DNA of 62,681 bases, filler included, from Craspedostauros australis (lineage: Eukaryota), in the NCBI GenBank assembly GCA_030167865.1. It is 6 parts of 6 records of this genome, joined end to end, with 100 filler letters (N's around TTAATTAATTAA, not from the genome) between each part and the next. Parts side by side here need not be neighbours in the genome. Positions count along the whole stretch, not along the records: positions 47,078 to 58,477 come from JALAGF010003706.1; 5 more parts are not named here. One strand, 5' to 3'. Position numbers and translations under genes: made by a program. The number at the start of each line of letters is the position of its first letter. Position 1 is the stretch's first letter. Shown here piece by piece: positions 6,403-58,477 of the stretch. The notes beneath the pieces were generated by a model. That model had not been told where the DNA came from. It saw nothing but the letters and a program-made list of their open reading frames with translations, and did not search any database.

Positions 6403-7260
6403 CCTTTTCTTGTTGTCGCTGTTGTTGCTGTTGGTGGTCGTACCTGTTGCTGATTGTTGGTGGTGGTGGTCCAATCGTACGAGTAGAGCTGGTAGAGTGT
6501 GTCGTCCCAAATCAGTTGAGCTTGGATGGCGATTATGATCTCATCTGCTCAAGTTTGCTGTCCTCCATTTCATGATCCTGTGCATTGATCATGAAGCAAC
6601 GTGTCGTCAGTCAACACGCCTGCATGGACTTGCGCAGTTCCACCATGGCATGCTACGACCGTGGACAGCCACATCATGATCCGAGGCTAGCAAGCTCGCT
6701 CACTCGCTCGCACGATACGACCTTGTCGGAATCGGTTTTGTGCCGACCATCAATCCATTTTGTGAGCGCATGAAACCACGACTGGCAACGCGTGACTCGA
6801 ATCCGAACATCAGATCCGAACCACGAACCCGAACATCGATTGAGCAAACACAAAACAACAAAAACAACAATCGGCCAATTCGCGCCAAAACGCACTCAAC
6901 CAGGACCTTCCATCAGCAACCTGTGCGCTGAGAAGGTGCCTTGCACATCCAACGCATGGTCCGTTCGTGGGACCATGCCCTAAGTGCTAAGCTTCGTACG
7001 GATGGCAACGCAACAAAGAAGTCGTTCGTCTATCTAAGTTCGTTCATGGAGCGTTATCCCGTCAAGGGCATCTTGCTGAACTCAACAAACTTCGGCCAGC
7101 GAAATATTCCCAATCTCGCTCCATCTCGATCAACAGCTCCCTCTCTCTCTGTCTGCTCGCAATCACTCGCACAGCACCTCGATACACCGCAATGAACCTC
7201 ACTATGCATCCCGCACCTCAAGCAACTAATCATAAATCACTCGTTATCAGATTACAAGAG

Positions 7261-17644: not shown

Positions 17645-18399
17645 CGTGAATCCGTTTGAGTGCGATGTGGTCCAGCAACAACAACAACTCGAAGGTGCAG
17701 CAGCGAAAGTCCGTGATGTGCGGAGTGATGAATGGCACTATGACAATCTATGGCGCGAAGATTCGTTTCTCCTTTGCCCTGGTTTGCTCGGCTGGGCTCG
17801 GCTCTACGTACTGTGATGCATGCTGTGTTGGTGTGCACCCTGCCCACCAAAGTGCTCCTCTCCATCCCTCTTTTGCCCTTGACCAACGGAGGACTTTCGC
17901 ACCTTCGCTGATCTTGGTGATGTGGTTTGGCACAGGCACCAGAATCCGAACGCAATCTTCCGAATGATTCAAGACTCAAAAAGATACGGTTCGTGAACCA
18001 AAATGAACCAAACGACGAACCGAAGAGGTACAAACGCTTCGCCCCGAACTGAACAACGAGATCATCGACTATCTCGATTAAACTCATAGCTACGCACGTG
18101 ATTTGTCAAGATCTTACTGCGTCGAAGTACCGTTTGCTCACACAAGTCACAAAATCACCAGAGTGAGATGAATGATGGGACGCCACGCATGGAGCCCCCT
18201 GGGGGATGACGGGGGCCTCTCGTTTGTTTGTGCCTTCCTTCAGAGACAGTACCAACGAGCGCACTAATACGAGCACCAACCACAAACCTTGCATCGACTG
18301 GATTGGTCTCATATTGTATTGTCACATATTGTATAATACAATACAAGCGACTCTTTCTTGCTCGTAGCACTGTCCATCGTAACAACACGCACCCTCACC

Positions 18400-20268
18400 A
18401 TGACGCAGTGCGAACGAGCCATGCAATCGGCGACGACTGTCTCACGCATCGCGCCGATCGCGTTCGCCATGATGACTTCAATGACGTCGGGCGGAGTAAT
18501 CTTCGGCTTCGGTCTCTTCACCAACGACATCAGGCTGCTGCATCATCTGACGCAGGATCAGATCAACACCATCAGCTCGGCGATCTTTTGCGCCGGCCTG
18601 CTCACTTGGATGCCTGGGCTAGTGGTGGATCACTTGGGCATACGATTCGCATTCCTCTTTGGTACATCTCTGTGCCTTGTGGCGTCATGGCGATTCTGGC
18701 TCATGGCGAGGGCGCCGTACGATGCGGATGACAGCAAGTCCGACCTCGTCATCGAGCTGTCCATTCTCGGAATGTTGGTATACCTCGGCGCCATGACGAC
18801 GGTCGGGAGCTCCTTCAAAATCGTCGCCGTGCTCAGCAAACCCAGTCAGGAAGGCACCCTCATCGGAATCGCGAAGGGATACACCGGCATCGGTGCTGGA
18901 GTCTACACCGCCATCTTTGAAGCAGTGAGGCGGCAACGCAACAGCCACGCTCGTGCGGGCGCGTTGACTGCATTGGATCAATCCAACATTGGATTCATCG
19001 TTGTGGCTTCCACCCTTTCCTTCCTCACGACGGTGCCGGCTTTGTGGATCATTCCTTCGCGTCAGGTTCTGGAGGGACCGATGCAGATCGTGGGGACCTT
19101 CACGGCCGCTCGCGTGAATGTCATGTACGCTGGGCTCGTTGTGTTGGCTGTGAGCGTCCTCGTGACGAGCTCGCTGATCACTCAAGACGACAGCAGAAAA
19201 GCCGATGTTGACGAAGCTGGCATCACAATTTTGTCCAACACGAGTGATGGAGTCCTTGACAATTACGGATTCAGCGTGGCAGTCGCTATCTTCTTTCTAT
19301 GGGTCGGACCGGCCTTCGTCGTATCGACCTGCATGGCCGGATCAAAACCAAAAGCAGAAGCGGCATCGCACGAGTACGACGATTGCGCCAGTGGCATGGA
19401 CGACATCGAAGACTCCACCGAAAGCAACATCAAACAGCAGCAGCTATTGTCAGAACATACAGCCCTGCTCAAACATACATCCACAGAAATCACGGATCTA
19501 CAGACAACCGTGCACGATGGCGACAACAACGATGACAACAGCATCATCAGCTCGGACAAGAAGGTAAATTTGAACCTCCTCCAGGCTTTGCAAACTCCGG
19601 AGCTATGGCTCATGTTCCATTGCACTGTCATTGTGGTGGGCAGCGGGACCCTCCTGACCAGCAATGTCAGTGCCATCGTCGAATCTCGCAGGCTGCCCGA
19701 CGATTTGACACCCATCGCCACTTCCGTCTTCAGCGTTGCACAGTCGGCATCGCGTGTCATCGCAGGGTTGTTGACAGAGATGGCGTCTGTCGATAATAAC
19801 AACAGCAGCAGCGACGGTGATCTCGATTGGTTCGGATGGCATTCTCGCCCATCGTTCTTGTCGTTGGCGGCATTCCTTGCAGCAGTGGCACACGGGATCC
19901 TTGCCATTCCCGGTCTGGGCCCCATCGGTTTCATTTTCGGTGTTGCCCTGGCCGGTATCGCGTTCGGCACCGTATGGCCTCTGATGGTGTTGGTCGTTGG
20001 TGACGTGTTCGGCAAAGCCAACCTGGGCACCATCTACCTTTGGTTCGATGGTTGCACCATCGGATTTGGGACGCTGATGTTTACCAAGTTCCTTTCCGAG
20101 TACATCTACGAACGACATCGCGTGCACTCTAACGCAATGGAAAGCTCGTCGTGCATCGGAGATGGATGCTTCCAACTGACGCACATCATCGTCGCTTTGC
20201 TGTGTTTGACAGCCATCGTGTCGCCCTTCGAATTGTCGAGGCGGACGCACAAACGTTTCATCCGCTGA
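18400..20268 (+). CDS. MFS transporter, nodulin-like/MCH1-like (copy 1)
   Basis: About 12 hydrophobic segments with a central hydrophilic loop. GLVVDHLG motif-A-like segment, GIAKGYTGIGA, NLLQALQTPELWL and DVFGKANLG..GDGCF. Confidence 0.88.
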   Translation: MTQCERAMQSATTVSRIAPIAFAMMTSMTSGGVIFGFGLFTNDIRLLHHLTQDQINTISSAIFCAGLLTWMPGLVVDHLGIRFAFLFGTSLCLVASWRFWLMARAPYDADDSKSDLVIELSILGMLVYLGAMTTVGSSFKIVAVLSKPSQEGTLIGIAKGYTGIGAGVYTAIFEAVRRQRNSHARAGALTALDQSNIGFIVVASTLSFLTTVPALWIIPSRQVLEGPMQIVGTFTAARVNVMYAGLVVLAVSVLVTSSLITQDDSRKADVDEAGITILSNTSDGVLDNYGFSVAVAIFFLWVGPAFVVSTCMAGSKPKAEAASHEYDDCASGMDDIEDSTESNIKQQQLLSEHTALLKHTSTEITDLQTTVHDGDNNDDNSIISSDKKVNLNLLQALQTPELWLMFHCTVIVVGSGTLLTSNVSAIVESRRLPDDLTPIATSVFSVAQSASRVIAGLLTEMASVDNNNSSSDGDLDWFGWHSRPSFLSLAAFLAAVAHGILAIPGLGPIGFIFGVALAGIAFGTVWPLMVLVVGDVFGKANLGTIYLWFDGCTIGFGTLMFTKFLSEYIYERHRVHSNAMESSSCIGDGCFQLTHIIVALLCLTAIVSPFELSRRTHKRFIR

Positions 20269-33959: not shown

Positions 33960-35446
33960 GGTGTTTGCTGAATTCGCTTGAGTAGAGTATAGTTTGCTGC
34001 GCCGCTGTTGATGTCGCTGCTGATGATGCTGCTGATGTTGCCGCTGCTGCTGTTGATGGTTCTGATGAAAGCCAATCAAACCAGATCGAAATGAAGCAAT
34101 GTGACGGTCGGGCCTGGCGGGAAAGTCCAAATGTGTGAGAGCCAAGTTCCGCTTGTTATGAATGTTCTTGCCGATGCTTCCTCTCGTGGGTGCTTCGTTT
34201 GGAATGGAACACTCTGCCGTGCTTGCTGTGACGACCGATCTCTTGGGAACAAGGAGAGACAGAGGCGCAGGTCTGGATGCCTCAGTTCGTCCTTCTTCTT
34301 CGTTGCTCTTTCTTTCTTTTCTTTCTTCTTTTTGCTTCACTCCACTTCCTTGCGTGTGATGCAACAGGCAGGCTTATCCGCTGCTCGATGGTTGTCTCTG
34401 GAGGTGTTGTGTTTGGGTCTTGCTATGCAGTGTATGATAGTATCGTCTGGTGCAGCTGTACCCCTTGTCGAGCAGAGTGTTGGTGGCCAAGTGGAGTATT
34501 CTCGCATCCGTGTCTCCGATTGTTGCACTTGCGCCGGTGCTTGCCTCTGCCTTTGGCTTTGCGTTCTTGGGTCCGAGTATCGCCGAGCGGGGTACGACTA
34601 CTTGTGTGTGTTTCACCGGTGATGATGTGGGTGGTTCCCGAAACATTTCATCTCGGTTCATCGCCCGCTCTTCGATTTTGGGGAAACGTCAAGGAGTTCA
34701 CCCGACTTCGCATCCGTGTCAAACAACGCAGGCCAACCAAACCAACCCAATTGCCTTCCATCCTGTTCCCTCAGAGAACGAGCTGACGCAACGCGAACAA
34801 CAAAGAAAGGGATTGAAGGTATCGAGTTTCCACGGTCGATGGCAAGACGCTATGTCAATACGACTAAATCGACCACAATCAAACGGGATTGAGTCTACCC
34901 TATTCGTGCCACAACAAAACGCAATTCCGAACGTCGCACAAACGCTGCGTTGGCGCAAAAGCAGAACAAAAACAAATTCCGTGTCAGAACTGAGACGAAT
35001 GAGCGTCGGCAGATACCAAATTCCGATGATGGCAACAGGAGCGCGGACACATCAAGAGGAAGCCTCGTGAACTTCTCACGGACGCAGCCACACAGACTTC
35101 TTCTTGGCTCTCTTCAACCAAACGTGCACAGGAATTGTATCCTTGATGATGGGAGACAAAGTACGGAGAATGATCGACAGAGCCTCATGGGCAGAACAGC
35201 GCAACTACCGCAGTGAATGATGTGATCTCACAGAGTACTGGCACGAATGCGAGTGGCATCATGCACATCAGACTCAAAAACGACCTGGAGAGCCATTAAT
35301 TGGAACAGATCCACCACGCTCCTCTCTTCTCCAGCATTCGCAGTATTTCTCTTGCTCCATCCATACTCTATCCATACTCTATCCATACTCTCATCACTCT
35401 ACCAATACCAATACCAATTCTCTTGTCTGCGAAGAGCACGTTCACC

Positions 35447-37354
35447 ATGACGACATCCGAGGAATCCAGCCAGACTTCGTCAACGACGTTATCACGCATC
35501 GCACCGTTGGCATTCGTCCTCATGAATTCGTTGGCAGCGGGCGGAGTCGAGTACGGCTTCGGACTCTTCGCCAACGACATCAGGTTGCTCCACCATCTCT
35601 CGCAGGATCAGATCAACACCATCAGCTCGGTCACTTTTTGTTCTGGCATCTTCAGCTGGGTGCCAGGACTCGTGCTCGATTACTTCGGCATCCGATTTGC
35701 GTTCCTGGTCGCCGCAACCATGTGCCTCGTTTCGGGCCTTCAATTCTGGTCCATCGCGAGGGCACCGTACGATCCCGATGACGACAAGAACTTCCTCATC
35801 GCCCAGCTTTCCGTGCTCGGCATGATCCTCTTCATGGGTGCCACCATGACGTCAGGATGCGGGTTCAAGACGGTGGCCCTGCTCAGCGATCCAAAGCAGG
35901 AGGGCAGCATCATCGGCATTGCGAAAGGCTACACTGGCATCGGTGCCGGAGCCTACACCTGCATCTTCGAAGCGTTGCGGCGGCACAGGAACAGCGGCGT
36001 CATCCTTGGCGGCGCGACGGCGTTGACGGTGCTGGATGAATCCAACTTGGGCTACCTGCTGGTTGCGGGTGTCGGGACCGCCCTCCTCACATTTCCGGCT
36101 CTGTGGTTCATCCCGTCCCATCGGGTCATGGAGGGACCGATGAAGATCGTTGGGACCTTCACTTCCGCTCACACCAACGTCATGTACGCTGGTCTCGTTC
36201 TGCTGGCTGCAGGCGTCCTCGTGACGAGCTCGCGCTTTGTCGACGACAGCAATGGCGACAATCACGCTGATGTGGATGCCGGTGACATCACAGTGTCACC
36301 CACTCTGAATGATGAATTCCTGAACAACTACGGATACTACGTCGCAGCGGCCATCGTTATTCTGTGGGTCGCACCGGCTTCCATCGTCGCGACGTGCATG
36401 GCAGAGCCGGCAGCGTCTTCTGAACATAATAATAATAATAATGGCGGCAGCATCATGAACGACGTCGAAGACTCGATCGCAAGCGACATGGAGAAGCAGC
36501 GGCAGCCATCGTCAGAACGTACCGCGCTGCTCAAACAGGCGTCTACTGCGATCACCGAGCTGGCAGAAAGCTTCTACGGAGACGAGCACGACGATGGCAA
36601 CATCACCACGATCAGCTCCGACAAGAAGTCAGACCTCAGTCTCTTTCAAGCATTGCAAACGCCGGAACTGTGGCTCATGTTCCACTGCACCGTCATCGTG
36701 GTGGGCAGCGGGACCGTCATTACCAACAACGTCAGCGCCATCGTCGAATCTCGCATGCTGCCCAGCAACATGACATCCGTCGCCACATCCGTCTTCAGCG
36801 TCGCCCAATCCGCATCGCGTGTCATCGCAGGGCTGCTGACGGAAGTGGCGGCGAAGAATCACGCCAAGAACAAGAAGGTCGCCAGCGGTTCTCTTGATTG
36901 GTTCGGATGGCATTCCCGACCGTCCTTCTTGTCGTTGGCAGCATTCATCGGAGCGCTGGCGCATGGCATCCTTGCTATTCCCGGCCTTGGATCCGGCGGC
37001 TTCATCGTCGGCGTTGCCCTGTCCGGCATCGCGTTCGGCACTGTGTGGCCCGTGATGGTGTTGGTCGTTGGTGACGTCTTTGGCAAAGCCAACCTGGGTG
37101 CCATCTACCTTTGGTTCGATGGTTCCACGCTGGCCTTCGGCTCGTTGTTCTTGTCCAAGCTCCTTTCGCAGTACGTCTACGAGCAACACAGGTTGTACCC
37201 CAACCTCGACGCGATGGGCGACGCCGACACCTCGTCGTGTTTCGGTGATGGATGCTTTCAACTGACGCACATCATCATCACATTGCTGTGCTTGGCGGCC
37301 ACCGTGTCACCCATTGAACTTTCGAGACGGACCCACAATCGTTCCATTCGCTGA
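35447..37354 (+). CDS. MFS transporter, nodulin-like/MCH1-like (copy 2)
   Basis: Colinear paralog of 18400-20268 (NDIRLLHHL.QDQINTISS, GIAKGYTGIGAG, QALQTPELWLMFHCTVIVVGSGT, DWFGWHSRPSFLSLAAF). Confidence 0.88.
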   Translation: MTTSEESSQTSSTTLSRIAPLAFVLMNSLAAGGVEYGFGLFANDIRLLHHLSQDQINTISSVTFCSGIFSWVPGLVLDYFGIRFAFLVAATMCLVSGLQFWSIARAPYDPDDDKNFLIAQLSVLGMILFMGATMTSGCGFKTVALLSDPKQEGSIIGIAKGYTGIGAGAYTCIFEALRRHRNSGVILGGATALTVLDESNLGYLLVAGVGTALLTFPALWFIPSHRVMEGPMKIVGTFTSAHTNVMYAGLVLLAAGVLVTSSRFVDDSNGDNHADVDAGDITVSPTLNDEFLNNYGYYVAAAIVILWVAPASIVATCMAEPAASSEHNNNNNGGSIMNDVEDSIASDMEKQRQPSSERTALLKQASTAITELAESFYGDEHDDGNITTISSDKKSDLSLFQALQTPELWLMFHCTVIVVGSGTVITNNVSAIVESRMLPSNMTSVATSVFSVAQSASRVIAGLLTEVAAKNHAKNKKVASGSLDWFGWHSRPSFLSLAAFIGALAHGILAIPGLGSGGFIVGVALSGIAFGTVWPVMVLVVGDVFGKANLGAIYLWFDGSTLAFGSLFLSKLLSQYVYEQHRLYPNLDAMGDADTSSCFGDGCFQLTHIIITLLCLAATVSPIELSRRTHNRSIR

Positions 37355-38994: not shown

Positions 38995-39736
38995 CTGCTG
39001 CTGCTACTACTATCGCTGTCCTCTTTGGCGACATCCCGGATGGCGTACCGGATGCGGATGCCAGAGTACACAAGCACCAAATTGCGTTGATTGTCTGATG
39101 GCGACCACGCATCGCCGTTGATGTACTGCTTGACAACGCTGTTGACACCATCACAGCCCACCACCATATCGTACCAGTACGGCCCTTCTCTCGTTCCATC
39201 TTCGAATGCGAGATGGATGAACTCTCGCGCCTCCGTCTTTTGACATTCCACATTCACCACTTGCTTGCCAGATGCACGGGCGTCGTCTTCAACTCTTCCA
39301 GAAGCACCTCCTGCAACTCTCCTCGCATGATGAAGTATGGTACGCCATGACCTCGCCGTCCTCCCGGATCAGCGCCTTTGTCGTGGCGTCACTCCACATC
39401 CATGATCATCTGTCTGAGATTGAAGTGCAGCAGCTGAAGCTCTTCGTTGGACGAGATCCAGTTGGTGGTCTTGGATCGCACGGTCGTCAACGGCAGCGCG
39501 GCATCGGCCACCGCACGCTGCAGGGACGGAGAGATTTGCTTCAGCACCGCCATGCCGCCGTTGAGCTCCGCGCCCGCACCTGCAACGACGTCAAATTCTG
39601 GTCTTGCATCGAAGCACGTCACATCGAAGCATGTCACATCAATGTTGTGTGCATCGTTACCGTTGTTGTTCTCGAAGGCATGCGCCAAGGAGAGGCCAGC
39701 GATGCCACCGCCGATCACGGTATTCTTCCGTTTTGG
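38995..39736 (-). pseudogene. FAD-dependent monooxygenase pseudogene, copy 2 (5' part)
   Basis: IGGGIAGLSLAHAF..GAGAELNGG then stop and frameshifts, later VVGCDGVNS. 38995-39586 is the reverse complement of 46386-46977. Confidence 0.82.
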
Positions 39737-42574: not shown

Positions 42575-43166
42575 GTTGCAGGTGCGGGCGCGGAGCTCAA
42601 CGGCGGCATGGCGGTGCTGAAGCAAATCTCTCCGTCCCTGCAGCGTGCGGTGGCCGATGCCGCGCTGCCGTTGACGACCGTGCGATCCAAGACCACCAAC
42701 TGGATCTCGTCCAACGAAGAGCTTCAGCTGCTGCACTTCAATCTCAGACAGATGATCATGGATGTGGAGTGACGCCACGACAAAGGCGCTGATCCGGGAG
42801 GACGGCGAGGTCATGGCGTACCATACTTCATCATGCGAGGAGAGTTGCAGGAGGTGCTTCTGGAAGAGTTGAAGACGACGCCCGTGCATCTGGCAAGCAA
42901 GTGGTGAATGTGGAATGTCAAAAGACGGAGGCGCGAGAGTTCATCCATCTCGCATTCGAAGATGGAACGAGAGAAGGGCCGTACTGGTACGATATGGTGG
43001 TGGGCTGTGATGGTGTCAACAGCGTTGTCAAGCAGTACATCAACGGCGATGCGTGGTCGCCATCAGACAATCAACGCAATTTGGTGCTTGTGTACTCTGG
43101 CATCCGCATCCGGTACGCCATCCGGGATGTCGCCAAAGAGGACAGCGATAGTAGTAGCAGCAGCAG
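42575..43166 (+). repeat. 592-bp repeat, direct copy at 46386-46977 and inverted copy at 38995-39586
   Basis: Starts gttgcaggtgcgggc and ends gatagtagtagcagcagcag in all copies. The ORF-track translations are identical. Three contig ends break at its boundaries. Confidence 0.92.
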
Positions 43167-46220: not shown

Positions 46221-46977
46221 CCAAAACGGAAGAATACTGTGATCGGCGGTGGCATCGCTGGCCTCTCCTTGGCACATGCCTTCGAGAACAACAACGGCAA
46301 CGATGCACACAACATTGATGTGACATGCTTCGACGTGACATGCTTCGACGTGACATGCTTCGATGCAAGACCAGAATTGGACGTTGTTGCAGGTGCGGGC
46401 GCGGAGCTCAACGGCGGCATGGCGGTGCTGAAGCAAATCTCTCCGTCCCTGCAGCGTGCGGTGGCCGATGCCGCGCTGCCGTTGACGACCGTGCGATCCA
46501 AGACCACCAACTGGATCTCGTCCAACGAAGAGCTTCAGCTGCTGCACTTCAATCTCAGACAGATGATCATGGATGTGGAGTGACGCCACGACAAAGGCGC
46601 TGATCCGGGAGGACGGCGAGGTCATGGCGTACCATACTTCATCATGCGAGGAGAGTTGCAGGAGGTGCTTCTGGAAGAGTTGAAGACGACGCCCGTGCAT
46701 CTGGCAAGCAAGTGGTGAATGTGGAATGTCAAAAGACGGAGGCGCGAGAGTTCATCCATCTCGCATTCGAAGATGGAACGAGAGAAGGGCCGTACTGGTA
46801 CGATATGGTGGTGGGCTGTGATGGTGTCAACAGCGTTGTCAAGCAGTACATCAACGGCGATGCGTGGTCGCCATCAGACAATCAACGCAATTTGGTGCTT
46901 GTGTACTCTGGCATCCGCATCCGGTACGCCATCCGGGATGTCGCCAAAGAGGACAGCGATAGTAGTAGCAGCAGCAG
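46221..46977 (+). pseudogene. FAD-dependent monooxygenase pseudogene, copy 4 (5' part)
   Basis: VIGGGIAGLSLAHAF, stop at 46581-46583 and frameshifts before IMRGELQEVLL and VVNVEC. Carries a 15-bp DVTCF repeat x3 (x2 in copy 2). Confidence 0.82.
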
Positions 46978-47077: not shown

Positions 47078-48688
47078 CAGCACACCATCCCAAGGCTCCC
47101 CGTCCCCTCCATCGAAGACACCATCCAACGATTCCTCCCAACCGCATTGCCTCTGGCCAGAACAACCGACGAACAACAAGCACTCAAACAGGCATGTCAC
47201 GACTTTCCACAACAGGCACAACAACTGCAACAGCGCCTCATTCAAAGACGAGAGGATGAAGGGAACAAGGACTCATCATGGCTGCAGATGTGGTGGAATC
47301 AGATGGGATATCTCCAAGTGAGAGATCCTGTGGTTGTCAACGTGTCGTACTTCTTTCACTTCCTCGATGATCCCACCCTTCATTACACTGCCTGCAACAG
47401 CAATATCAGTAGCAATATCAGTAGCAATGTCAGTAGCAGTGCCAAGGTGAACGTCCAACGAGGTGCAGCTCTGCTGTACAGCACCGCAGAGTTCCGAAAG
47501 ATGGTGTGCACGGGACAGCTCACAGCTGAGGTCATCGGAAGCAAGACAAGAGGCAACCAAGCCCCGTTGTGCTCTGTCGCATACAAGTACATGTTCAACT
47601 CCTGTCGTGTGCCACAACGACAGCAGGATGCGTATCGCATGTACGATCCCAGCCAGCACACCCACAGCATCGTGAGTCGCAAGGGATACTTCTTCTCAAT
47701 CGAGCTGGTGGACGGTGAGAGTCAGGATCCGTTGCCCATCGAGGTGTTGGAGGCTCAGTTGGAGCGTTGTATTGAGATGGCGGATGATCTATCATGTGTT
47801 GGTGCATCAGACATGTCATCCGATATGGCGTTAGATGTGACATCAGACATGGCTTCAGGCATGGCATTGTCACTGTCACCACGAGCCAAGCTGGGTTTGC
47901 TGACCAGCCAGAACAGAGATGACTGGGCCGATGGCAGACAGCAGCTCCTCGATATCGGTGGTGATGCCTTCGGCAAGGATCTGGAACGCTTGGAGAGCGG
48001 CGCCATCCTTCTCAACCTCGATGATCACTCGCCTGTGTCGCGACAGGAGTGTGGAGAGATGTGCTGGACGGGAGGGATGAAGGGCGGTCACAACCGTTGG
48101 TTTGACAAGTCGATCCAGGTGTGCGTGTCCGAGAACGGGAAGAGTGGGTTCTTGGGTGAGCATTCGATGATGGATGGCATGCCATGTGTGAGGTATGCGG
48201 ACTACATCACAGGAGTGACGTATGCTGAGGCCAAGCGTCGATCTCATGCCAAGTATGGCACAGAAGCAGGAGCGTCATCGTCATTGATGATGGATGTGTC
48301 ATCGATGGTGAATGAGCTGTTTGGTGAGATCTTGTCTTCCACCCATGGTGGTCCCAACGGTGTTGCCAATGGTGCGAACAGTGCCAGCTCGGATAGCAAG
48401 ATGATTGTTGATCTTGTGGATGTTGCACAGGCTTCGTTCTATGGTCTCATCAAGAGTCACGATCTGCATGTGCAGAGCTTCCATGGGTATGGGTCTGGAT
48501 GGATGAAGAAGAATGGTTTTTCTCCGGATGCGTTTGTTCAGGCAGCGATGCAGGTTGCATCATTCCGTCTGTTTGGTGAGATGGTAGGTACGTATGAGGC
48601 AACGCAGGTGCGTCGTTTCTTGCATGGTCGTACGGAGACGACCCGCACTGTCTCTCGCAGCATGGAGACATTCGTCAAGATGATGGGT
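47078..48688 (+). repeat. Left arm of 1611-bp inverted repeat (right arm 56867-58477)
   Basis: Position p pairs with 105555-p. No differences were seen by eye or in the translations up to 48439. Six substitutions follow in 48440-48688, then abrupt divergence. Confidence 0.93.
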
Positions 48689-49138
48689 ACACGATGCATA
48701 CTGGACGGCATTGCAGTAGAGACACGGCAGGAGCAGCTGGAAGCCTTGAGAGCTGCAGCGAAGGAGCACTCCGCTTTCATCCGGTTGGCGGCTGATGCCG
48801 AAGGCGTGGATCGTCACTTTTTCGGATTGTCGATGCTTGGCGAGCCCGAAGAAACCCTTCCTGATTTGTTCCAACATCCTGCCTTCCAGGAGTCGAAGAA
48901 GTGGCGCATGAGCACGAGCCACCTGCCACATCCAAGATTTGCCAACTGGGGCTTCGGAGCCGTCGTTCCAGACGGTGTTGGAATTGGATACTCCATCCTT
49001 CCAGATTGCTGCACCTTCAACGTGTCTGCATACGCCGAGACGGAATGGGCAGACAAAATGAGCACGCTGTTGGAGGAAGCTTTGGTGGAACTGAAGGCTG
49101 TCGTGGAAAGCGACCCCGACAAGCAAGAAGAGGACTAA
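47078..49138 (+). CDS. Carnitine O-acyl(acetyl)transferase, copy 1 (5'-truncated; no PTS1)
   Basis: IPRLPVPSIEDT, SWLQMWW..YL, NRWFDKS, catalytic EHSMMDG, SPDAFVQ, YEATQVRRFLHGRTET, GVDRH, STS motif and GAVVPDGVG. Ends DPDKQEED. Confidence 0.93.
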   Translation, partial: QHTIPRLPVPSIEDTIQRFLPTALPLARTTDEQQALKQACHDFPQQAQQLQQRLIQRREDEGNKDSSWLQMWWNQMGYLQVRDPVVVNVSYFFHFLDDPTLHYTACNSNISSNISSNVSSSAKVNVQRGAALLYSTAEFRKMVCTGQLTAEVIGSKTRGNQAPLCSVAYKYMFNSCRVPQRQQDAYRMYDPSQHTHSIVSRKGYFFSIELVDGESQDPLPIEVLEAQLERCIEMADDLSCVGASDMSSDMALDVTSDMASGMALSLSPRAKLGLLTSQNRDDWADGRQQLLDIGGDAFGKDLERLESGAILLNLDDHSPVSRQECGEMCWTGGMKGGHNRWFDKSIQVCVSENGKSGFLGEHSMMDGMPCVRYADYITGVTYAEAKRRSHAKYGTEAGASSSLMMDVSSMVNELFGEILSSTHGGPNGVANGANSASSDSKMIVDLVDVAQASFYGLIKSHDLHVQSFHGYGSGWMKKNGFSPDAFVQAAMQVASFRLFGEMVGTYEATQVRRFLHGRTETTRTVSRSMETFVKMMGTRCILDGIAVETRQEQLEALRAAAKEHSAFIRLAADAEGVDRHFFGLSMLGEPEETLPDLFQHPAFQESKKWRMSTSHLPHPRFANWGFGAVVPDGVGIGYSILPDCCTFNVSAYAETEWADKMSTLLEEALVELKAVVESDPDKQEED

Positions 49139-49340
49139 GCCAGATACCTGGCGAAGCACAGACTCCACAGCAGGTGCACGATGCGAGACAAGGTGCATGT
49201 TTAGAGAGTAGAGACGGAATGAGGTTTTTGTAGTCGTGGTCGCCGTTACTCAGATGCTTGTGTTAGAAGTGATATGAATTGAAATAGAAACCATTGTCAT
49301 GAGCAAAGTTTGGATTCGATGCGACAATTCGGTTCGGTCC

Positions 49341-52300
49341 TCATCCTTGTCTCCCTCTACCGCCGCCTCGTCCGCCACCGCCGCCGCCCCGACCTCCGCG
49401 TCTCCGGCGCTGGCGCCCCCGACCGCGTCCACCCCCGGTTTGACCTGAAACTCCACCTTGTGACTTCGGTTGCTGCCCTGGTATCCGATTGGACTTTCCA
49501 CCTCTGCCTTGGCCTGGGACCGTTCTAGCATTTGTCTGCTTTTGCTTTTGCTGCTGCTGCGGTTGGTGGTTCTGTTGCGCCTGCTGCTTTTGTTTGCCGC
49601 CCCGTCTCCCTCTTCCACCTTGGTTGGCCACGGCTGGCTGCTTCTTTGGCGGTGCGGGCCACATCCCGTTGCTCACCTTGGCCCCGGTAAGGACTTTCCG
49701 CAAATGCATATCTGCGATTCGCATCAAGTCGAAGATCTTGCGAGCTCCCTTCTCAGAGGCGGGTGTTCCCAGATCATGGGGACAGTGCGAGTCGTGCGTC
49801 TCGAAGGGATCCTCGATGCAATGGAACGGTACTCGCTTGTGGAACGACGATCGTGGCAATGACAGATCTCCGCGCTTGATACAAGCGGCGTACAGGCCAG
49901 ATGGAAATTGATGGCTGTAGAAATGGAAGAAGCCGTACACCAACACGGAGATGGGCGTATCGATGAACTCTTGTGGCGGAGCCCACGCGCCGGCCGTTGC
50001 AATGCTGTACCATGACAGCGCGTAGGTCTCCAAATCGTTGATGGTGTGCCAGTAGTTCTCGCTGTTGGGCTCGAAGCCGGTTTTCTTCATGAGCTCCTTC
50101 GACTGCAGGCTTGGCAAGTAGCCGTGGCACTGAAGGTAGAAGATGACCAAGTTGACCCATGCATAGCTGCTGATGAAGTCAGTTCTCGCCGAATTGATTT
50201 CGTGCTCCTTGGCCCAGCGCTTGACCGCCAAGATGAGACGCTTGACACGGATGTCGATGATCGAGTACTCGCGGATCATCCCAGAATTGGCAACCGCGAT
50301 GTCGTTCATGAAGCAAATGTCGAACCTGGAGTATGAAGAAGGCCGCAACAGTGGTATGCAGCAGTGATTATGACAGCGGCCACGGAGAGAGAATCATCAA
50401 GGTGAGAAAGGCGGATCATGGGTTTGATGCAAGAGTTGAACATTTATGCAGGTGTGCAACCAACAGCATGGGGAGAGACCTCATGTCGAATCAGCATAAC
50501 GTGGAGAAGTAAGCATCTTCGTGGCAATCATGGCGTGGACTCACTTGAGCGAACCGTCGTTGCTGTATGGATTTCCAGCGTACATGTAGGAGCCTTGGAC
50601 GACGGGAACACGTGCTCTCGGCACAGGGACCATCTCCTCGAATTCACCTTCCCTGCGTTCGAGGGTGCGGCAGACCTGGTAGACGAGCTGCTTCGTGGAT
50701 GATTCGTATTTGGATGCGGTAATCTTGCCACCGCGGAAGGAATCTCTGAGTCTTTCCACGCCCGGTAGATAGAGCGACAAGTCGACATCTGCGCCATGTC
50801 CGAGGGAGAGATCGGAAAGACAGCTCCCGTAGATGCTTAATCTGGCACCGGCAAATCGGTCCTTGAGAAGCTTCTTGATTTTGTCGTGCACGTTGTTGAT
50901 GGCGCGGTCGTATCTGGACTTGGCGCTCTGCATGGGTGCCTCCTTTGCGAGTGCATCGATTTCGTCGAGAGTTTTGGCGATTTTCAGGATCTGCTTTTGG
51001 GTCTTTTGCCCTTTTTCGGTCTGCTGCTCGGATACCAAGATCTCAAGTGGGTGTCGCAGTTGAGGTTTGGCAAATGTCTGGATTGTCGGAATCCATTGCT
51101 CCGACCAAAAGGAGGGATCACCGAAGGAGTGGTCGACGACGGAGAGGGCCGTGTTGTATCCCACGTACGCGGCGACAATGTCAGTCAGTTCTGCCTTGAA
51201 TGCAGTCCGTCTCTTCGCCGAGACGATGTCGTAGATGTTGATGCCGAGAATCCAGTACCTGTTGTCCTTTTTGGTCCGATATTTGACATCTCCGATATAA
51301 AGGTCCTTGTCTCGGTTCCGCTTGTGGTTGAAGGCGGCAGCCAAATGCGGCGCCAAGGCGCGGATGGAATTGATCGTGCGTACCAGTCGGATATGGGCTG
51401 GGTCGTACATGCTCTCTTCGTCGTCATCGTCGCCCTCAGCATCATCATCGTCTGCAGCTGTGTCTGCATCGGCAGTGTTGGCATTGGTTGCATCTCCTTC
51501 CTTGCCATTCTGATCTTGGCCATCGGCAGTGTTCGTCTTGTCAGTGTTGCCATTGCCATTGTCCGCCTTAGCGGTGTCTGCCTTGGAGACTTCGGCCCCA
51601 CCAGTCTCAGACTTGGGAGTATCGGGTGCACCTTCGTCAGCGGCTGGCGGCTGCAAGGTGGCATCCGATTGCTCCTGGTTGCCAGGATCGTCAGCCACAG
51701 CAGTGCCTTCATCCTTGGACTTGTTGCGATCGATGATACGCTGCTGCTCATGTTCGAGCGCCTTGACACGCTTCTCGTTGCGCGAGAGCATCTTTCCGCC
51801 GTTGAGCTCCTTGGCCTTTGCCTCGCGTTCTTTTTTTCCCTTGCGATGGCGGCCGCGGAAGAAGTCCAGCAGGCACATTTCGATTTGATTGCTGAAGTTG
51901 GTATCTCGAGCCAAGTGCTGGTAAACCGAGTAGACTGCTTTCGATGCTGGGTCTTCTGTGTCCTTGTCCTTGGCGCCCTCGTCATCCTTTGTGGCTTTGC
52001 CATCCCCTGAGGCTTCTTCTCCTTCTGCAACCTTTTCAGCCTCGGCGACCTCTGCGGCCTCCTTTCCTTCGTCTGCCTCACGGTCCTTGACGACTTGCTC
52101 GCCAGTCGCCGGCTCATCTTGAGACTTGCCATCCCCATCAACAGGTTTGTTGTCATCGAGCTTGTCATCTTTGCTTTCTTCGGCCTCTCCGGCAACGATC
52201 TCAGGCTCCTCGATGGCGATCTCGGATGGATCTATCTTGAGGATGGCTTCGATCTCCATGTCCGGATACATCTTCTGGAGCATGGACTGCGCAGAGAAGA

Positions 52301-52541
52301 GCAGCAGCGGCTCCTTGTCCGCTCCTGGATAGCGCTCGTGCTCGATGCAGAGGTATCCATCTCCACGATCAAACACCGTCTCCTCCTCCCAGATGTTGGG
52401 CAACCGGACGCGTTGGCGCTCGTTCGAGTCCTCATCATCGGAGCATTCGCTTACCGTGGCAGCATTGATGTCGTCGTTGGTGATATCGATGACTGCATCG
52501 TCATCCGCCGCAGGTGCTGCGGGTGCTGCGGATTCTGACAT
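49341..52541 (-). CDS. Cid1/TUTase-type non-canonical poly(A)/terminal uridylyl polymerase; exons 52541-50545 and 50325-49341
   Basis: YGSCLSDLSLGHGADVDL (GS..DxD), ARVPVV, FDICFMNDIAVANS, VKRWAK, SSYAWVNLVIFYLQ and IEDPFE..HD. The GTGAGT..CAG intron is in phase. Long acidic N-terminus and RGG tail. Start codon uncertain. Confidence 0.9.
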
Positions 52542-53206
52542 GCTGGACGGTCTCCTTCCACGAGATGGCGCCACTTGTGATGGTTCGAAGGCTTCAGCGC
52601 CTCTTGCTGGCTTCCAGTCCACGCTTTTGCTTCTGTCGTTGCTCTGCACTACGACTATATGTGCCAATGCCGACAATGTATCTCACACTCCTGCCTTGGT
52701 GTCTGAATCATTTGCGCCTCCCGACGTTCTGCGAGACTCTGTGGTGGTGTCCAACGAACCGCGATGGCGCCATCGCGCCAACCCGCGATCGTGTTCTTGC
52801 CACCACCTTTCATCGCCTTTTCGCCACCAATCTTTCTCTCCCGTACATTCTGCGCGTACAAAAATGTCTGGTTTTCTGGGGATGTGTCATTGTTTGGATT
52901 GATGTGGCCTGGTCAGCGGGTGGGTGGACAGACAGTGCAGATGGTAGTATCTAGGTACTTGTCCAAACATCCTTGTTGGATAAGTTCCCATCTCTTTTGG
53001 AAATCTGTATTTTGCGAGAAAGTACTATCACAATGATCTTTCGCGCCATCACCGAGACTGTCGAAAACAAACAGAACAACCACAAGAACAATCTCGACAA
53101 GCCACGCCTTGTACTATATTCGGGAGTATCGATGGTGGTGATGGTGCCGCGATGTGCAATACAAATGCAATAGAAGGAGCCGATAGCAGATAGATCCATT
53201 GCAACC

Positions 53207-56200
53207 ATGAAAGCAATGAGGATGGGCGCGATGAGGACACGGATGCTGATTCTCCTCTTCGCGCGAGCCTTCGCTTCAGTTGGGGCCGACCTCAATGTCA
53301 CTCAATTGGACTGCGGAATGAGGGTCCTCGCACTCAAGTTTGCGTCGCAGACTCTCCGCTCACGCACATCCGTTCATATCAGTCCTCATCTTCTCAACCA
53401 CAACAACAACAACGAATGCGTGGGCGTTGCGAGAGGCACTCACTGCAACAGCGAGGTGCTACGCCACGTTCGCGAGGCGCTGGAGATGGATTGGCTATGT
53501 CCCGACTTCGGCGCTCCTCGCGACAGCGGCCACACCAACCATGACGACAACGGCATTCGCAATGACGTAGCACAGCAGGATATCACACGATCCAATGCCA
53601 ACGATATCGACTGTCCTTTGGATTGTCCACGCTGTTGTGTGTACGTTGCTCCATCATCCATAACCCTGCAGGAAGATGGCCAACATGCTCACACAGGGTT
53701 TCTGTTTCATCGCCAACCATCGGCTTCGTCGTCGACGCATCCTGATGGATCCTTCGATCGCCCGTTCATATCCATTCATGATGCAATCGCGCATGTACGG
53801 CGAATGCGCAGTCACCATCGCAAACATGCCTTTCGCCGCAACATCAACATCACCGCCAATCACAACAGCACTCAAGGCGAGCGGAGCAGGCGAAGGGACA
53901 ATGATTCACATCACTCGTCCATCCCAAGTCGCTTCCATGTGGTGTTACGACAAGGAGTGCATCACATGCTGAAGACGCTGGTGCTCACAGCCGACGACAG
54001 CAATATCACGATTCGGAGTATCGTGGGCGAACACGCCACAATCGGAGGCGGCGTGCCGTTGCCACCTGACCTTCCTTGGCGGCCATGCCAGTCGCCACGG
54101 TGCGCCACCTCCTCCATTCTCGTTGCCAATTTGGGCACCATCCTCTCGCCTGAAGCACATGCGCCGAATCCACCGTCCTTGTTCACCTCGACCGCCAGGT
54201 ACATCCGAGCCAGGTACCCCAACTCCAACCCAGAGACGGACCAATGGGGCTACGCGTCCCACAACCGGGCCAACTACTCGATACCTTCCCACGATGTGTT
54301 GGAATGGCGCAAGCCAGAGCCTGACCCCAGCAACGTCCCCAATTTCACGTACATTGATTTCGCGTCAAACCGCGACTGCAGCATTCCTCAGAAGCACGAC
54401 AGTGCGCAAGATGGCTACAACCTCTACGCATCCGGTCACGGTGGCGTATGCGCCACACTCTGGGGACCCGGCGCAGACAGCTACTGGTGTTCCAACGCCA
54501 GTTCCGGTGGTTGGGCGGAAGTGGATCAGGAATGCGCCATCACAGGCCAGCTCAACATACCGGTCGGCATGACCTATAATCGATCCACGGATGTCGGACA
54601 GTTCTTGCAAACGACCAAGAACTCCGCAGGGGGTATCGTGCATGCGTGGCATTCCCAAAGTTGGGCGATGCACATGTTTCAGATCGCGGCGCACAACAAA
54701 TCAAGCGCCTCCCTCACCTTCGCATCTGGTGGTGGAAAGCAGGGCGGGCGGAATTGGTGTCGATGCGATCAGTGCACGTACGCAGGCTCTTGGTGTCGGC
54801 AGCATCAGAATCCGCCGGATGATACCGACACGCGCTTGATCAGCGGATCGTGGGTCGTGGAGCATGTCCTGGAGGCCTTGGATCAGCCGGGCGAATTCTT
54901 CTATGATGCCAGCTCCATGGACCTCTACGTGTTTCCGAACCGCACCCAAGATCTGAAGGATTTCACATTCGGTTGGATCGAGAGGCTCATTGAAATTCAT
55001 GATGGCGCTGTCGGTGTTCGATTGGAAGGGATCCGATTCCAGCATACGAAGGCCACGTACATGGATGGCAATTGGTCGGCACCCTCCGGTGGCGATTGGG
55101 CGTTGCACAGGAATGGTGCGGTCTTCATCGAGCAAGCCAGCAACATCACCGTCCGGAATTGTGAATTCCACCGCATCGACGGCAACGCCATCTTCCTGTC
55201 CGGGAGAACACGCCATGTGGACATCCGATACAACAAATTCGAATGGTTGGGTGAGAATGCGATTGCGACCTGGGGCAATACGGATGCGTTCGACGCAACC
55301 GCTGGGGACTTCCCAGTCTCCACCTTCATCGAAGGCAACGTGATGAGAGAAGTTGGGATCTATCAGAAGCAATCTTCCGGCATCGGACAGGCCAAAGCGG
55401 CCAAGACCACCATCCGGAAGAATATCATGTTCAACATGCCGCGGGCGGCAATCAACTTCAATGACATGGTGGGTGGCGGCGACATTATCGAAGGCAACCT
55501 CATCTTCAACACCTGCCGCGAATCCGGCGATCACGGTCCCATCAATTCATGGGATCGTCAACCATTCCTGACGACGTTGCGGGATGGCATCACACCGTCC
55601 TTCCGGCCGCTGCATCGACAGATCCGCAGCAATTTCATATTCGCCAACTATGGTGGTAGTCAGGGAGTGGACAATGATGACGGTTCCTCGTGGTACAACA
55701 TTTCCCGCAATGTCTTTTACATGGCCGAAGGCTTCAAGATGGACTACGGTGGTCATGATTCCATCTTCCATGACAATCTGATTCTATCCTATCCCTACGA
55801 CAACAGCCAATGCTTCAACGTGGCATCCTTTTTGAAAGACCACGAGGACCGGCTGTACAACAACATCTGCGTCGTTGGACTGGGCCGACACTTCCTGGAT
55901 TCGGGTTGCGGAAATCCAACTTGCGCATCGCAAGCACCCGTCGATGAGACTTCCATGGAAGTTGTGGGATACATCTGGGAAGATTGCGATAAGACTCGCT
56001 TGCGTCTGTCCAACAACACGTACTTCACGAACAATGGCACGGCCGTGATCCATTGCGGCGGCCGTCAGCACACGATTGAAGAGATGCAACGTCTGCATGG
56101 ATTGGAGGTGGGCTCGACGTATCACAAAACACCGCGGGCACGAGCGCTGGTTGACATGGCGTCCGCCATGCTGTTCAATGGTGATGCTGAACACCTGCTG

Positions 56201-56299
56201 CCTCAGCGGTTGCCCACGTCGCCGTTGCCACCAGCAACAGCGACATCGACAGAGCCTGCGACAGCAAAGTTGCGTTCCTTGCGAATGCCCCGACGTTGA
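53207..56299 (+). CDS. Secreted right-handed parallel beta-helix (pectin-lyase fold) protein, GH141-like putative CAZyme
   Basis: Signal peptide, GSFDRPFISIHDA, VVLRQGVH, RARYPN, EALDQPGEFFYD, repeated I..N.F rungs, RESGDHGPINSWDRQ and DNDDGSS. Confidence 0.75.
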   Translation: MKAMRMGAMRTRMLILLFARAFASVGADLNVTQLDCGMRVLALKFASQTLRSRTSVHISPHLLNHNNNNECVGVARGTHCNSEVLRHVREALEMDWLCPDFGAPRDSGHTNHDDNGIRNDVAQQDITRSNANDIDCPLDCPRCCVYVAPSSITLQEDGQHAHTGFLFHRQPSASSSTHPDGSFDRPFISIHDAIAHVRRMRSHHRKHAFRRNINITANHNSTQGERSRRRDNDSHHSSIPSRFHVVLRQGVHHMLKTLVLTADDSNITIRSIVGEHATIGGGVPLPPDLPWRPCQSPRCATSSILVANLGTILSPEAHAPNPPSLFTSTARYIRARYPNSNPETDQWGYASHNRANYSIPSHDVLEWRKPEPDPSNVPNFTYIDFASNRDCSIPQKHDSAQDGYNLYASGHGGVCATLWGPGADSYWCSNASSGGWAEVDQECAITGQLNIPVGMTYNRSTDVGQFLQTTKNSAGGIVHAWHSQSWAMHMFQIAAHNKSSASLTFASGGGKQGGRNWCRCDQCTYAGSWCRQHQNPPDDTDTRLISGSWVVEHVLEALDQPGEFFYDASSMDLYVFPNRTQDLKDFTFGWIERLIEIHDGAVGVRLEGIRFQHTKATYMDGNWSAPSGGDWALHRNGAVFIEQASNITVRNCEFHRIDGNAIFLSGRTRHVDIRYNKFEWLGENAIATWGNTDAFDATAGDFPVSTFIEGNVMREVGIYQKQSSGIGQAKAAKTTIRKNIMFNMPRAAINFNDMVGGGDIIEGNLIFNTCRESGDHGPINSWDRQPFLTTLRDGITPSFRPLHRQIRSNFIFANYGGSQGVDNDDGSSWYNISRNVFYMAEGFKMDYGGHDSIFHDNLILSYPYDNSQCFNVASFLKDHEDRLYNNICVVGLGRHFLDSGCGNPTCASQAPVDETSMEVVGYIWEDCDKTRLRLSNNTYFTNNGTAVIHCGGRQHTIEEMQRLHGLEVGSTYHKTPRARALVDMASAMLFNGDAEHLLPQRLPTSPLPPATATSTEPATAKLRSLRMPRR

Positions 56300-56410
56300 A
56301 TGTAAGAATGTGAACTTTTATACTTGATCACGGTGCTGTCGTATGCATCTAACTCTTACTGGTATTCATGTCCCATTATTCCACTCACCAACGGCTGCAA
56401 TGCTATCCAC

Positions 56411-58477
56411 CTACAATTTGCTCACTGGTTTCGCAGCTGCTGTTGCCTCGAGGATGATCTTCATTTCGAGCAAGGCCTCCTCCAGAAGCTCCGACAGCTT
56501 GTCTGTCCACTCGAGGTGCTTCAATGCGGTGACGCAGAACACGCAGGACTTGGCGTGGATGGAATACGCCAAACCGACGCCATCCGGCACCACCTCGCCG
56601 TACCCCCACAGAGCAAAGCGTGGATGGCTGAGCTGGCTTGTGCTCATGCGCCAGCGCTTGGCCCGAGCGAAGAGCTCGTTGGACATGAGGGCGGGTACCG
56701 ATTCGTGGGCCTTGACCATCATGGATAATCCAAGGAGGTGGCGGTCGACACCCTGCGCGCGCCCAGCCTTGCGCATGTACTTGTTGTGGTCCGCGACCGC
56801 AACTTTGAGCGCCTTCTTGATTTTGACGCTTTGGAATGCATTGACCCTTGCGAGCGTTGCTCTGGGACCCATCATCTTGACGAATGTCTCCATGCTGCGA
56901 GAGACAGTACGGGTCGTCTCCGTACGACCATGCAAGAAACGACGCACCTGCGTTGCCTCATACGTACCCACCATCTCACCAAACAGACGGAATGATGCCA
57001 CCTGCATCGCTGCCTGAACAAACGCATCCGGAGAAAAACCATTCTGCTTCATCCATCCAGACCCATACCCATGGAAGCTCTGCACATGTAGATCGTGACT
57101 CTTGATGAGACCATGGAACGAAGCCTGTGCAACATCCACAAGATCAACAATCATCTTGCTATCCGAGCTGGCACTGTTCGCACCATTGGCAACACCGTTG
57201 GGACCACCATGGGTGGAAGACAAGATCTCACCAAACAGCTCATTCACCATCGATGACACATCCATCATCAATGACGATGACGCTCCTGCTTCTGTGCCAT
57301 ACTTGGCATGAGATCGACGCTTGGCCTCAGCATACGTCACTCCTGTGATGTAGTCCGCATACCTCACACATGGCATGCCATCCATCATCGAATGCTCACC
57401 CAAGAACCCACTCTTCCCGTTCTCGGACACGCACACCTGGATCGACTTGTCAAACCAACGGTTGTGACCGCCCTTCATCCCTCCCGTCCAGCACATCTCT
57501 CCACACTCCTGTCGCGACACAGGCGAGTGATCATCGAGGTTGAGAAGGATGGCGCCGCTCTCCAAGCGTTCCAGATCCTTGCCGAAGGCATCACCACCGA
57601 TATCGAGGAGCTGCTGTCTGCCATCGGCCCAGTCATCTCTGTTCTGGCTGGTCAGCAAACCCAGCTTGGCTCGTGGTGACAGTGACAATGCCATGCCTGA
57701 AGCCATGTCTGATGTCACATCTAACGCCATATCGGATGACATGTCTGATGCACCAACACATGATAGATCATCCGCCATCTCAATACAACGCTCCAACTGA
57801 GCCTCCAACACCTCGATGGGCAACGGATCCTGACTCTCACCGTCCACCAGCTCGATTGAGAAGAAGTATCCCTTGCGACTCACGATGCTGTGGGTGTGCT
57901 GGCTGGGATCGTACATGCGATACGCATCCTGCTGTCGTTGTGGCACACGACAGGAGTTGAACATGTACTTGTATGCGACAGAGCACAACGGGGCTTGGTT
58001 GCCTCTTGTCTTGCTTCCGATGACCTCAGCTGTGAGCTGTCCCGTGCACACCATCTTTCGGAACTCTGCGGTGCTGTACAGCAGAGCTGCACCTCGTTGG
58101 ACGTTCACCTTGGCACTGCTACTGACATTGCTACTGATATTGCTACTGATATTGCTGTTGCAGGCAGTGTAATGAAGGGTGGGATCATCGAGGAAGTGAA
58201 AGAAGTACGACACGTTGACAACCACAGGATCTCTCACTTGGAGATATCCCATCTGATTCCACCACATCTGCAGCCATGATGAGTCCTTGTTCCCTTCATC
58301 CTCTCGTCTTTGAATGAGGCGCTGTTGCAGTTGTTGTGCCTGTTGTGGAAAGTCGTGACATGCCTGTTTGAGTGCTTGTTGTTCGTCGGTTGTTCTGGCC
58401 AGAGGCAATGCGGTTGGGAGGAATCGTTGGATGGTGTCTTCGATGGAGGGGACGGGGAGCCTTGGGATGGTGTGCTG
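56411..58477 (-). CDS. Carnitine O-acyl(acetyl)transferase, copy 2 (5'-truncated; C-terminal PTS1 -SKL)
   Basis: Same core as copy 1. The distinct but homologous C-terminal ~150 aa (GVDRHLLGL, MSTSQL, GEVVPDGVG) ends KPVSKL-stop. Confidence 0.93.
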   Translation of the reverse strand, partial: QHTIPRLPVPSIEDTIQRFLPTALPLARTTDEQQALKQACHDFPQQAQQLQQRLIQRREDEGNKDSSWLQMWWNQMGYLQVRDPVVVNVSYFFHFLDDPTLHYTACNSNISSNISSNVSSSAKVNVQRGAALLYSTAEFRKMVCTGQLTAEVIGSKTRGNQAPLCSVAYKYMFNSCRVPQRQQDAYRMYDPSQHTHSIVSRKGYFFSIELVDGESQDPLPIEVLEAQLERCIEMADDLSCVGASDMSSDMALDVTSDMASGMALSLSPRAKLGLLTSQNRDDWADGRQQLLDIGGDAFGKDLERLESGAILLNLDDHSPVSRQECGEMCWTGGMKGGHNRWFDKSIQVCVSENGKSGFLGEHSMMDGMPCVRYADYITGVTYAEAKRRSHAKYGTEAGASSSLMMDVSSMVNELFGEILSSTHGGPNGVANGANSASSDSKMIVDLVDVAQASFHGLIKSHDLHVQSFHGYGSGWMKQNGFSPDAFVQAAMQVASFRLFGEMVGTYEATQVRRFLHGRTETTRTVSRSMETFVKMMGPRATLARVNAFQSVKIKKALKVAVADHNKYMRKAGRAQGVDRHLLGLSMMVKAHESVPALMSNELFARAKRWRMSTSQLSHPRFALWGYGEVVPDGVGLAYSIHAKSCVFCVTALKHLEWTDKLSELLEEALLEMKIILEATAAAKPVSKL
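56867..58477 (-). repeat. Right arm of 1611-bp inverted repeat
   Basis: Reverse complement of 47078-48688. Confidence 0.93.

Follow-up and report, generated by a model that had tools for sequence, protein, structure and literature searches.

The subject of this analysis is a pair of facing carnitine acetyltransferase (CAT) genes in the diatom Craspedostauros australis (GenBank assembly GCA_030167865.1, here G000). They lie on contig C3706 (JALAGF010003706.1; 11,400 bp), which occupies positions 47078 to 58477 of the window, the 62,681-nucleotide stretch (filler included) that was analyzed and in which several contigs are joined via N-flanked linkers; C numbers denote contigs of this assembly, L numbers loci and P numbers proteins. 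The two genes converge from the ends of the contig, have nearly the same core and end in different C termini, only one of which carries a type 1 peroxisomal targeting signal (PTS1). Distinguishing a presequence-bearing CAT type (M) from a presequence-less type ending in SKL (P), we arrive at the view that patchy gene conversion has probably shaped this pair of a presumably mitochondrial and a presumably peroxisomal paralog, the address-bearing ends of both genes being kept. The features of the contig are the following.

47078 to 48688, plus strand: left repeat arm, core of a probably mitochondrial CAT (amino acids 1 to 537 of the in-window frame), for which contig C4754 most likely provides the 5' end.
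47078 to 48439, plus strand: 1,362-bp assembler repeat node, present at either end of C3706 and again where C4754 ends and where C3707 begins.
48440 to 48688, plus strand: 249 bp containing six single nucleotide polymorphisms (SNPs) between the arms, read as divergence after conversion.
48689 to 49138, plus strand: apparently unconverted C terminus of the left gene, ending in DKQEED and lacking a PTS1; it groups with presequence-bearing M paralogs and shows 0 differences from a contig of a second library, X1.
49341 to 52682, minus strand: Cid1-family nucleotidyltransferase, terminal uridylyltransferase (TUTase)-like, in two open reading frames (ORFs) probably split by an intron; the ancestral downstream neighbor of CAT.
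53174 to 56299, plus strand: gene for a right-handed beta-helix protein, within the segment between the arms.
56411 to 56866, minus strand: apparently unconverted C terminus of the right gene, with the PTS1 tripeptide SKL at its end; it groups with a third copy on C4746 and with P0002.
56867 to 58477, minus strand: right repeat arm, core of the probably peroxisomal gene, whose presequence-less 5' end is most likely on C3707.

Both genes match the Pfam family PF00755 (Carn_acyltransf) over its full length, with E values of 1.6e-149 and 2.1e-147, and the best-scoring solved relatives are carnitine acetyltransferases (E value of 2e-61). An EHS histidine at amino acid 362, which we take to be the catalytic histidine, and an STS motif at amino acid 612, presumably involved in carnitine binding, are found in both proteins and align to CrAT; the latter lies in both diverged tails, where the first-pass annotation of this DNA had expected it. 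Both proteins also have a bulky tryptophan near the position of the CrAT pocket methionine, a position that may bear on specificity for short-chain acyl-CoA.

The arms form an inverted repeat of 1,611 bp with 6 mismatches, located at arm positions 1363, 1389, 1432, 1479, 1509 and 1569 and thus all within the final 249 bp, in line with the earlier description of six SNPs in the last ∼250 bp; 4 of them are synonymous and 2 are not. At codon 538, identity between the two genes drops abruptly to 50 to 61% at the DNA level (per 150-bp window), and the two C termini, ending in DKQEED and KPVSKL, have 45% protein identity across 146 amino acids, so that the reported switch to diverged tails is confirmed. 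The breakpoint coincides with a variable stretch that follows a conserved block. Such an abruptly bounded stretch of near identity, set within paralogs that have diverged elsewhere, is a pattern characteristic of gene conversion. The interior, annotated earlier as TUTase plus beta-helix, indeed holds the Cid1-type nucleotidyltransferase in its two ORFs and the beta-helix gene.

The first 1,362 bp of C3706 also close contig C4754 and open contig C3707, all four assembly copies being identical, and the contig ends represent an unresolved assembler repeat node (a graph of the form X-R-A-R'-Y); an unrelated 592-bp node in the window likewise has copies at four contig ends. That both arms stop at a common base follows from positions 47078 to 58477 being one contig bounded by the 1,362-bp node. 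The first-pass annotation had read the common end as the point where the N-terminal sequences branch; branching N termini do exist, but the branch lies further upstream, as C4754 and C3707 stay alike for another ∼88 bp, with 2 SNPs, before they diverge. This extends the homogenized tract to ∼1.7 kb.

Both 5' ends could thus be recovered, on C4754 and C3707. The C4754 leader comprises 43 amino acids, among them 6 Arg, 3 Lys and 1 acidic residue, lies behind an XRN exonuclease gene and resembles the leaders of M proteins, while the C3707 leader has at most 30 amino acids, 3 of them acidic, and several Met codons, and resembles the short leaders of P proteins. Judged by composition and by comparison with homologues, the former is probably a presequence of the mitochondrial type and the latter probably not a presequence at all. 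The signals read from the sequence would then be a presequence on one gene and a PTS1 on the other, with C4754 probably belonging to the left gene and C3707 to the right one. Contig numbering (C3706, C3707) was considered as evidence for the pairing and rejected, given that neighboring numbers are not co-oriented. A cyclin gene lies near XRN and CAT in C4754, apparently also in locus L017.

Since short-read contigs end at the repeat and its identity is probably in part collapse, one arm could in principle be misjoined and the DKQEED gene could own a separate, unrelated core. We consider such a chimera highly improbable and largely refuted: none of the 7 scored matches in G000 is another M-type core, the node has distinct SNPs to either side, and X1 displays the same fork with both tails. 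X1 is a single run available as contigs, possibly from the same strain, and its status as RNA is a guess. One X1 contig covers exactly 47078 to 48688, and at 48688 the library forks into a DKQEED and an SKL tail contig, each overlapping the core contig by 30 nucleotides; for the SKL tail, the overlap derived from the X1 depth table agrees with expectation (predicted, 40.7; observed, 40.7), contig depths being used only for such overlap arithmetic and uncovered stretches not being taken as evidence. This shows that both core-to-tail junctions exist outside this assembly.

The X1 core contig carries all six right-arm alleles and differs from the assembly by a further 18 SNPs and a 9-bp deletion, which fall into two clusters, at 47311 to 47494 and 47809 to 48055. 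The SKL-form database protein P0001 has the two amino acid variants of the second cluster and not those of the first. Most simply, these data can be read as two copies that are 1 to 2% different in the core and that assemblers collapse, choosing different paths, so that the perfect identity over 1.36 kb is probably in part an assembly collapse of copies that are ∼98 to 99% alike. The identity noted in the first-pass annotation therefore holds for the assembly but probably not for the cell. Alternatively, the arms may be truly identical over 1,362 bp in the assembled strain, following a very recent conversion, with the variants of X1 and P0001 reflecting alleles or strain differences. The identity of the four assembly copies and the lack of an alternative (variant) core contig on searching G000 speak for this reading, which we nevertheless regard as rather unlikely: X1 has 0 differences in 2,243 bp outside the core (five listed contigs; 8 pieces shown and 5 not) versus 19 places in 1,362 bp within it, both ends of the X1 core contig coincide exactly with fork points of the assembly, and 8 differences in 343 bp separate the flanks that are resolved in the assembly. 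More generally, “perfect” repeats at contig ends may be collapsed near-copies, which should serve as a warning.

To place the two genes among their relatives, we used trees of 27 to 51 chosen rows out of 136 proteins. A PTS1-like C-terminal tripeptide is present in 114 of 120 homologues (the best 120 of 268), and each of the 10 homologues sampled from beyond the duplicated group also has an Arg-rich leader. A pennate group splits into two clades, one (P) with short leaders and SKL or SRL ends and one (M) with long basic leaders, in which SKL has been lost in 2 of 7 proteins. In the tail tree, the left DKQEED tail joins the 7 M proteins with a support of 99/94 and has M motifs in common with them. 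A sister relationship of left and right tails is rejected (P = 0.009), as is a grouping of left, right and third-copy tails (P = 0.014). The core tells a different story: its partners in the core tree are the third copy (97/93) and P0002, labeled Stauroneis constricta (100/100), and a grouping of core and M is rejected (P = 3e-43). Trees within and outside the tract are thus discordant, as gene conversion predicts and as separate phylogenies of core and tail, proposed in the first-pass annotation, were meant to reveal. A quick tree places the trio of core, third copy and P0002 with the P clade (Shimodaira-Hasegawa-like approximate likelihood ratio of 84). A search with the tail sequence yielded 3 matches, none of them close, and the best 120 of 815 matches to an M profile included no M-type protein of the species that P0002 comes from. 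In columns ∼800 to 816 of alignment A2, the motif form TEVTR occurs in the M-type proteins P0064, P0080, P0086 and P0115 and in P types of the Bacillariaceae, while other M types carry TETTR; this sharing, taken with an identical run of 21 residues in the Nitzschia inconspicua pair, possibly reflects an older short conversion.

The third copy ties the core to a lineage and is listed here as a further feature.

G000, C4746, 35162 to 37300 (L005, L008, L009): third CAT copy, SKL type, dispersed, with at least 2 frame breaks, one of them at a short tandem expansion near the 5' end.

This copy, probably a pseudogene, has an SKL tail and 75 to 87% identity along the core, and its 5' end aligns further with C3707 than with C4754, which ties the start of C3707, the core and the SKL tail to one lineage. 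Polarizing the six 3' SNPs with it assigns 2 to the left arm, 3 to the right arm and 1 to neither. That C4746 might be a homologous haplotype was rejected, since there is no synteny past the gene. A distant fourth family member is encoded at L007 (C3335:87227-89116), with 31% identity and a full PF00755 match.

The genomic neighborhood adds to this picture. XRN or TUTase adjoins CAT in 10 of 80 metagenome loci, many of the others being short or distant, and along the single contig of L052, XRN is followed by an M-type CAT and then by a convergent TUTase. Together with the third copy, this synteny suggests that C4754 with DKQEED and C3707 with SKL are the ancestral pairing, and the order in L052 agrees with a placement of the left tail in M. 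A position of CAT between or beside the two RNA-decay genes, XRN exonuclease and Cid1-type nucleotidyltransferase, was seen at L011 (the C4754 end), L017, L021, L022, L030, L052, L058, L059 and L064, a diverse set of diatom-like contigs. Neither an inverted CAT pair nor a beta-helix gene beside CAT was found in any of the 80 loci. At L064 (338 to 7975), from another organism, a CAT and a TUTase are followed by another, diverged CAT that points the same way and then by XRN, an independent duplication whose CAT copies have a single common match of 77 bp at 79%. L052 contains another inverted paralog pair, 77% alike, just past the TUTase (11411 to 13299 and 15199 to 17070). In three M/P pairs from other diatoms, with linkage judged from near-adjacent locus tags or source contigs of equal size, identity is 30 to 72% per 50-amino-acid window and the longest identical run is 10 to 21 residues, compared with 454 here; the pair of N. 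inconspicua accounts for the 21-residue run, and for this pair and that of SGILL the linkage is judged on these grounds.

Discordant trees, third copy, synteny and unhomogenized pairs elsewhere all support the earlier proposal that old paralogs are being homogenized by gene conversion. We propose that the ancestor had, as in most diatoms, one CAT gene with both a mitochondrial presequence and SKL, located between XRN and TUTase-like genes, and that an old duplication in a pennate lineage gave rise to a presequence-bearing M copy and a presequence-less SKL copy. In C. australis, M would have kept its ancestral position, between XRN and TUTase, and lost SKL, with P inverted ∼8 kb away. Nonallelic homologous recombination between the facing copies, resolved as conversion, would then have left ∼1.7 kb of coding sequence ∼98 to 99% alike, from just past the presequence to the variable loop at amino acid 537, with the core coming from the SKL-gene lineage; later, shorter tracts could have produced the identical blocks of ∼230 to 385 bp between the difference clusters. 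Leader and tail may have escaped, protected by selection and lost homology, and the products would be mitochondrial and peroxisomal acetyl-carnitine shuttle enzymes with nearly the same catalytic core.

The core differences are clustered, significantly so in a sum-of-squares test (P = 0.004 unweighted; P = 0.02 weighted by the sites variable versus the third copy), a pattern expected from repeated exchange in tracts a few hundred bases long. A single replacement, by long conversion or template switch, could instead have put a P core into the M gene, followed by 1.5 to 2.5% drift and no further exchange. Both tract boundaries are abrupt, the six 3' SNPs are split between the arms as later mutation predicts, and the longest-gap test for clustering is weak (P = 0.025 unweighted; P = 0.06 weighted), all of which suits one event. 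Given the sum-of-squares result, and because M and P, given how far apart they are in other diatoms, should hardly be able to start a one-step exchange unless they had already been homogenized before, we judge it improbable; like true identity of the arms, it is a variant of detail that overlaps with patchy conversion.

Several observations weigh against patchy conversion as outlined above. The left tail is a long branch, its placement with M drops to a support of 89/94 in a second tail tree, and the approximately unbiased test allows it to join the right tail and P0002 (P = 0.108) or the P clade (P = 0.2). The trio of core, third copy and P0002 is assigned to neither M nor P in the careful core tree, so that the direction of conversion is traceable only back to the third copy. 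The clustering tests compare a single contig path with a single assembly consensus, and spurious identical blocks could result from hidden bubbles; moreover, X1 may come from the same strain and is RNA only by guess, and P0001 mixes assembly-type and X1-type variants, so that variants are not assignable to a copy. Synteny gives the ancestral pairing only, since a crossover within the repeat keeps both gene links. Finally, localization is judged by composition alone. We still consider patchy conversion with retained ends the likely history of this locus.

The first-pass annotation had gone further and suggested that crossover within the repeat acts as a recombinational switch of organelle targeting. 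We found no positive evidence for this claim. The assembly and the contigs cannot phase N with C termini across ∼1.4 kb and consequently do not give the present pairing, and the ancestral pairing (presequence with DKQEED, none with SKL) is already the sensible one. Nevertheless, a share of conversions might resolve as crossovers, leaving the 8-kb segment in both orientations among strains or cells in a stochastic, nonregulated manner. The geometry fits, with 1.7 kb at ∼98 to 99% and 8 kb apart; P0001 and X1 are different mosaics of core variants, such mosaics also being expected from bubble-popping assemblers. In Saccharomyces, homogenized inverted repeats are described as inverting recurrently, with ∼4% of conversions crossing over (PMC9731477), and frequent mitotic interhomolog recombination has been described in diatoms (bioRxiv 2020.11.08.373134). 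Against such a polymorphism, no read spans the repeat, the third copy keeps the pairing of SKL with a leader lacking a presequence, and a flip removes SKL from the presequence-less gene, which selection should oppose. On balance, we regard it as quite unlikely.

A flip would yield one enzyme with presequence and SKL, as in the dual-signal ancestor, and another that has neither signal and would probably be cytosolic. As a presequence is described as usually overriding a PTS1 (PMC4585086), peroxisomal supply would then depend on an internal start. The bolder idea that the converted core keeps the genes recombinogenic and that the segment flips in living populations, re-pairing the targeting ends, strikes us as quite unlikely; if true, a eukaryotic alga would have a heritable polymorphism in DNA orientation by which its acetyl-carnitine shuttle is rerouted, one orientation giving mitochondrial-only and peroxisomal-only enzymes and the other a dual-signal and a cytosolic enzyme. 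Still more specific is a programmed, regulated inversion that switches targeting, comparable to the flip/flop mating-type switching of methylotrophic yeasts. Nothing but the geometry and the re-pairing of signals on a flip favors it, mutations have accumulated in both arms, and the three pairs from other diatoms lack homogenization, making it hardly credible. No recombinase or transposase family was detected against Pfam in 13 neighboring ORFs, a subset (3 interior, 1 on the next contig, 7 on C4754 and C3707, and 2 elsewhere in the window), and a genome-wide search was not made; a linked recombinase is not known to be required in MAT switching of methylotrophic yeasts.

Gene conversion between paralogs is a known process, and the case described here is real, though less exact and less switch-like than the first reading had it. 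Probably compartment-specific paralogs appear to have had their catalytic cores rehomogenized while both address-bearing ends stayed distinct, whereas the three other pairs examined diverged freely. This permits asking whether selection on targeting signals sets conversion boundaries, and raises the question of why ∼150 C-terminal residues escape although a PTS1 consists of three. No paper on diatom CAT paralogs or their conversion was found in the literature searched, most subscription journals being outside its coverage.

A close parallel is primate SIGLEC11/SIGLEC16, described as opposite paralogs ∼9 kb apart with a 3-kb region under repeated, fragmented conversion and with ends of opposite function that stay distinct (PMC5701461). 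As here, inverted paralogs are partly homogenized and keep their own ends; the SIGLEC pair is arranged head to head, encodes receptors and is converted in its N-terminal part, whereas the organelle isoenzymes described here are arranged tail to tail and converted in the middle, with both ends kept. The flip/flop region of Saccharomyces chromosome XIV resembles our locus in its homogenized genic inverted repeats and in a segment orientation beyond the reach of short reads. There, whole genes lie in 4.2-kb repeats, inversion occurs only on evolutionary timescales, with no flip in ∼53,800 mitoses and 950 meioses, short-read assemblies hid it, and no sign that orientation matters was found (PMC9731477). 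Inversion has been demonstrated in that system and is hypothetical here; as the repeat arms of our locus are part of the two coding sequences, every crossover would alter protein ends and a flip would create new ones. For hexokinases of Physcomitrella, concerted evolution of catalytic cores with differing N-terminal targeting has been proposed (PMC3045890), but those genes are dispersed and the signal is old and partial, without a near-identical tract.

Two further systems concern differently targeted isoenzymes. Conversion between genes for cytosolic and glycosomal forms reportedly occurs among the phosphoglycerate kinases of trypanosomes, which is similar to our case, except that these genes form a direct tandem array and are thus not invertible. 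Yeast CAT2 is said to be a single gene whose alternative starts give mitochondrial and peroxisomal CAT with the same core. Most diatom homologues resemble this single-gene dual targeting, in contrast to C. australis, where two genes reach nearly the same end by what we take to be conversion.

Other repeats in the window were also noted. The exact 592-bp node lies at 38995 to 39586, 42575 to 43166 and 46386 to 46977 and at L103:1-592. It sits in tandem units that also contain an ORF for a monooxygenase-like Rossmann-fold protein (weak NAD_binding_8 match) and an unassigned ORF of 489 amino acids; a further copy, ∼80% alike, is found at 3454 to 6724. Nodulin-like/major facilitator superfamily transporter paralogs at 18337 to 20265 and 35300 to 37351, in direct orientation and 17 kb apart, are 73% alike at the DNA level and not homogenized.

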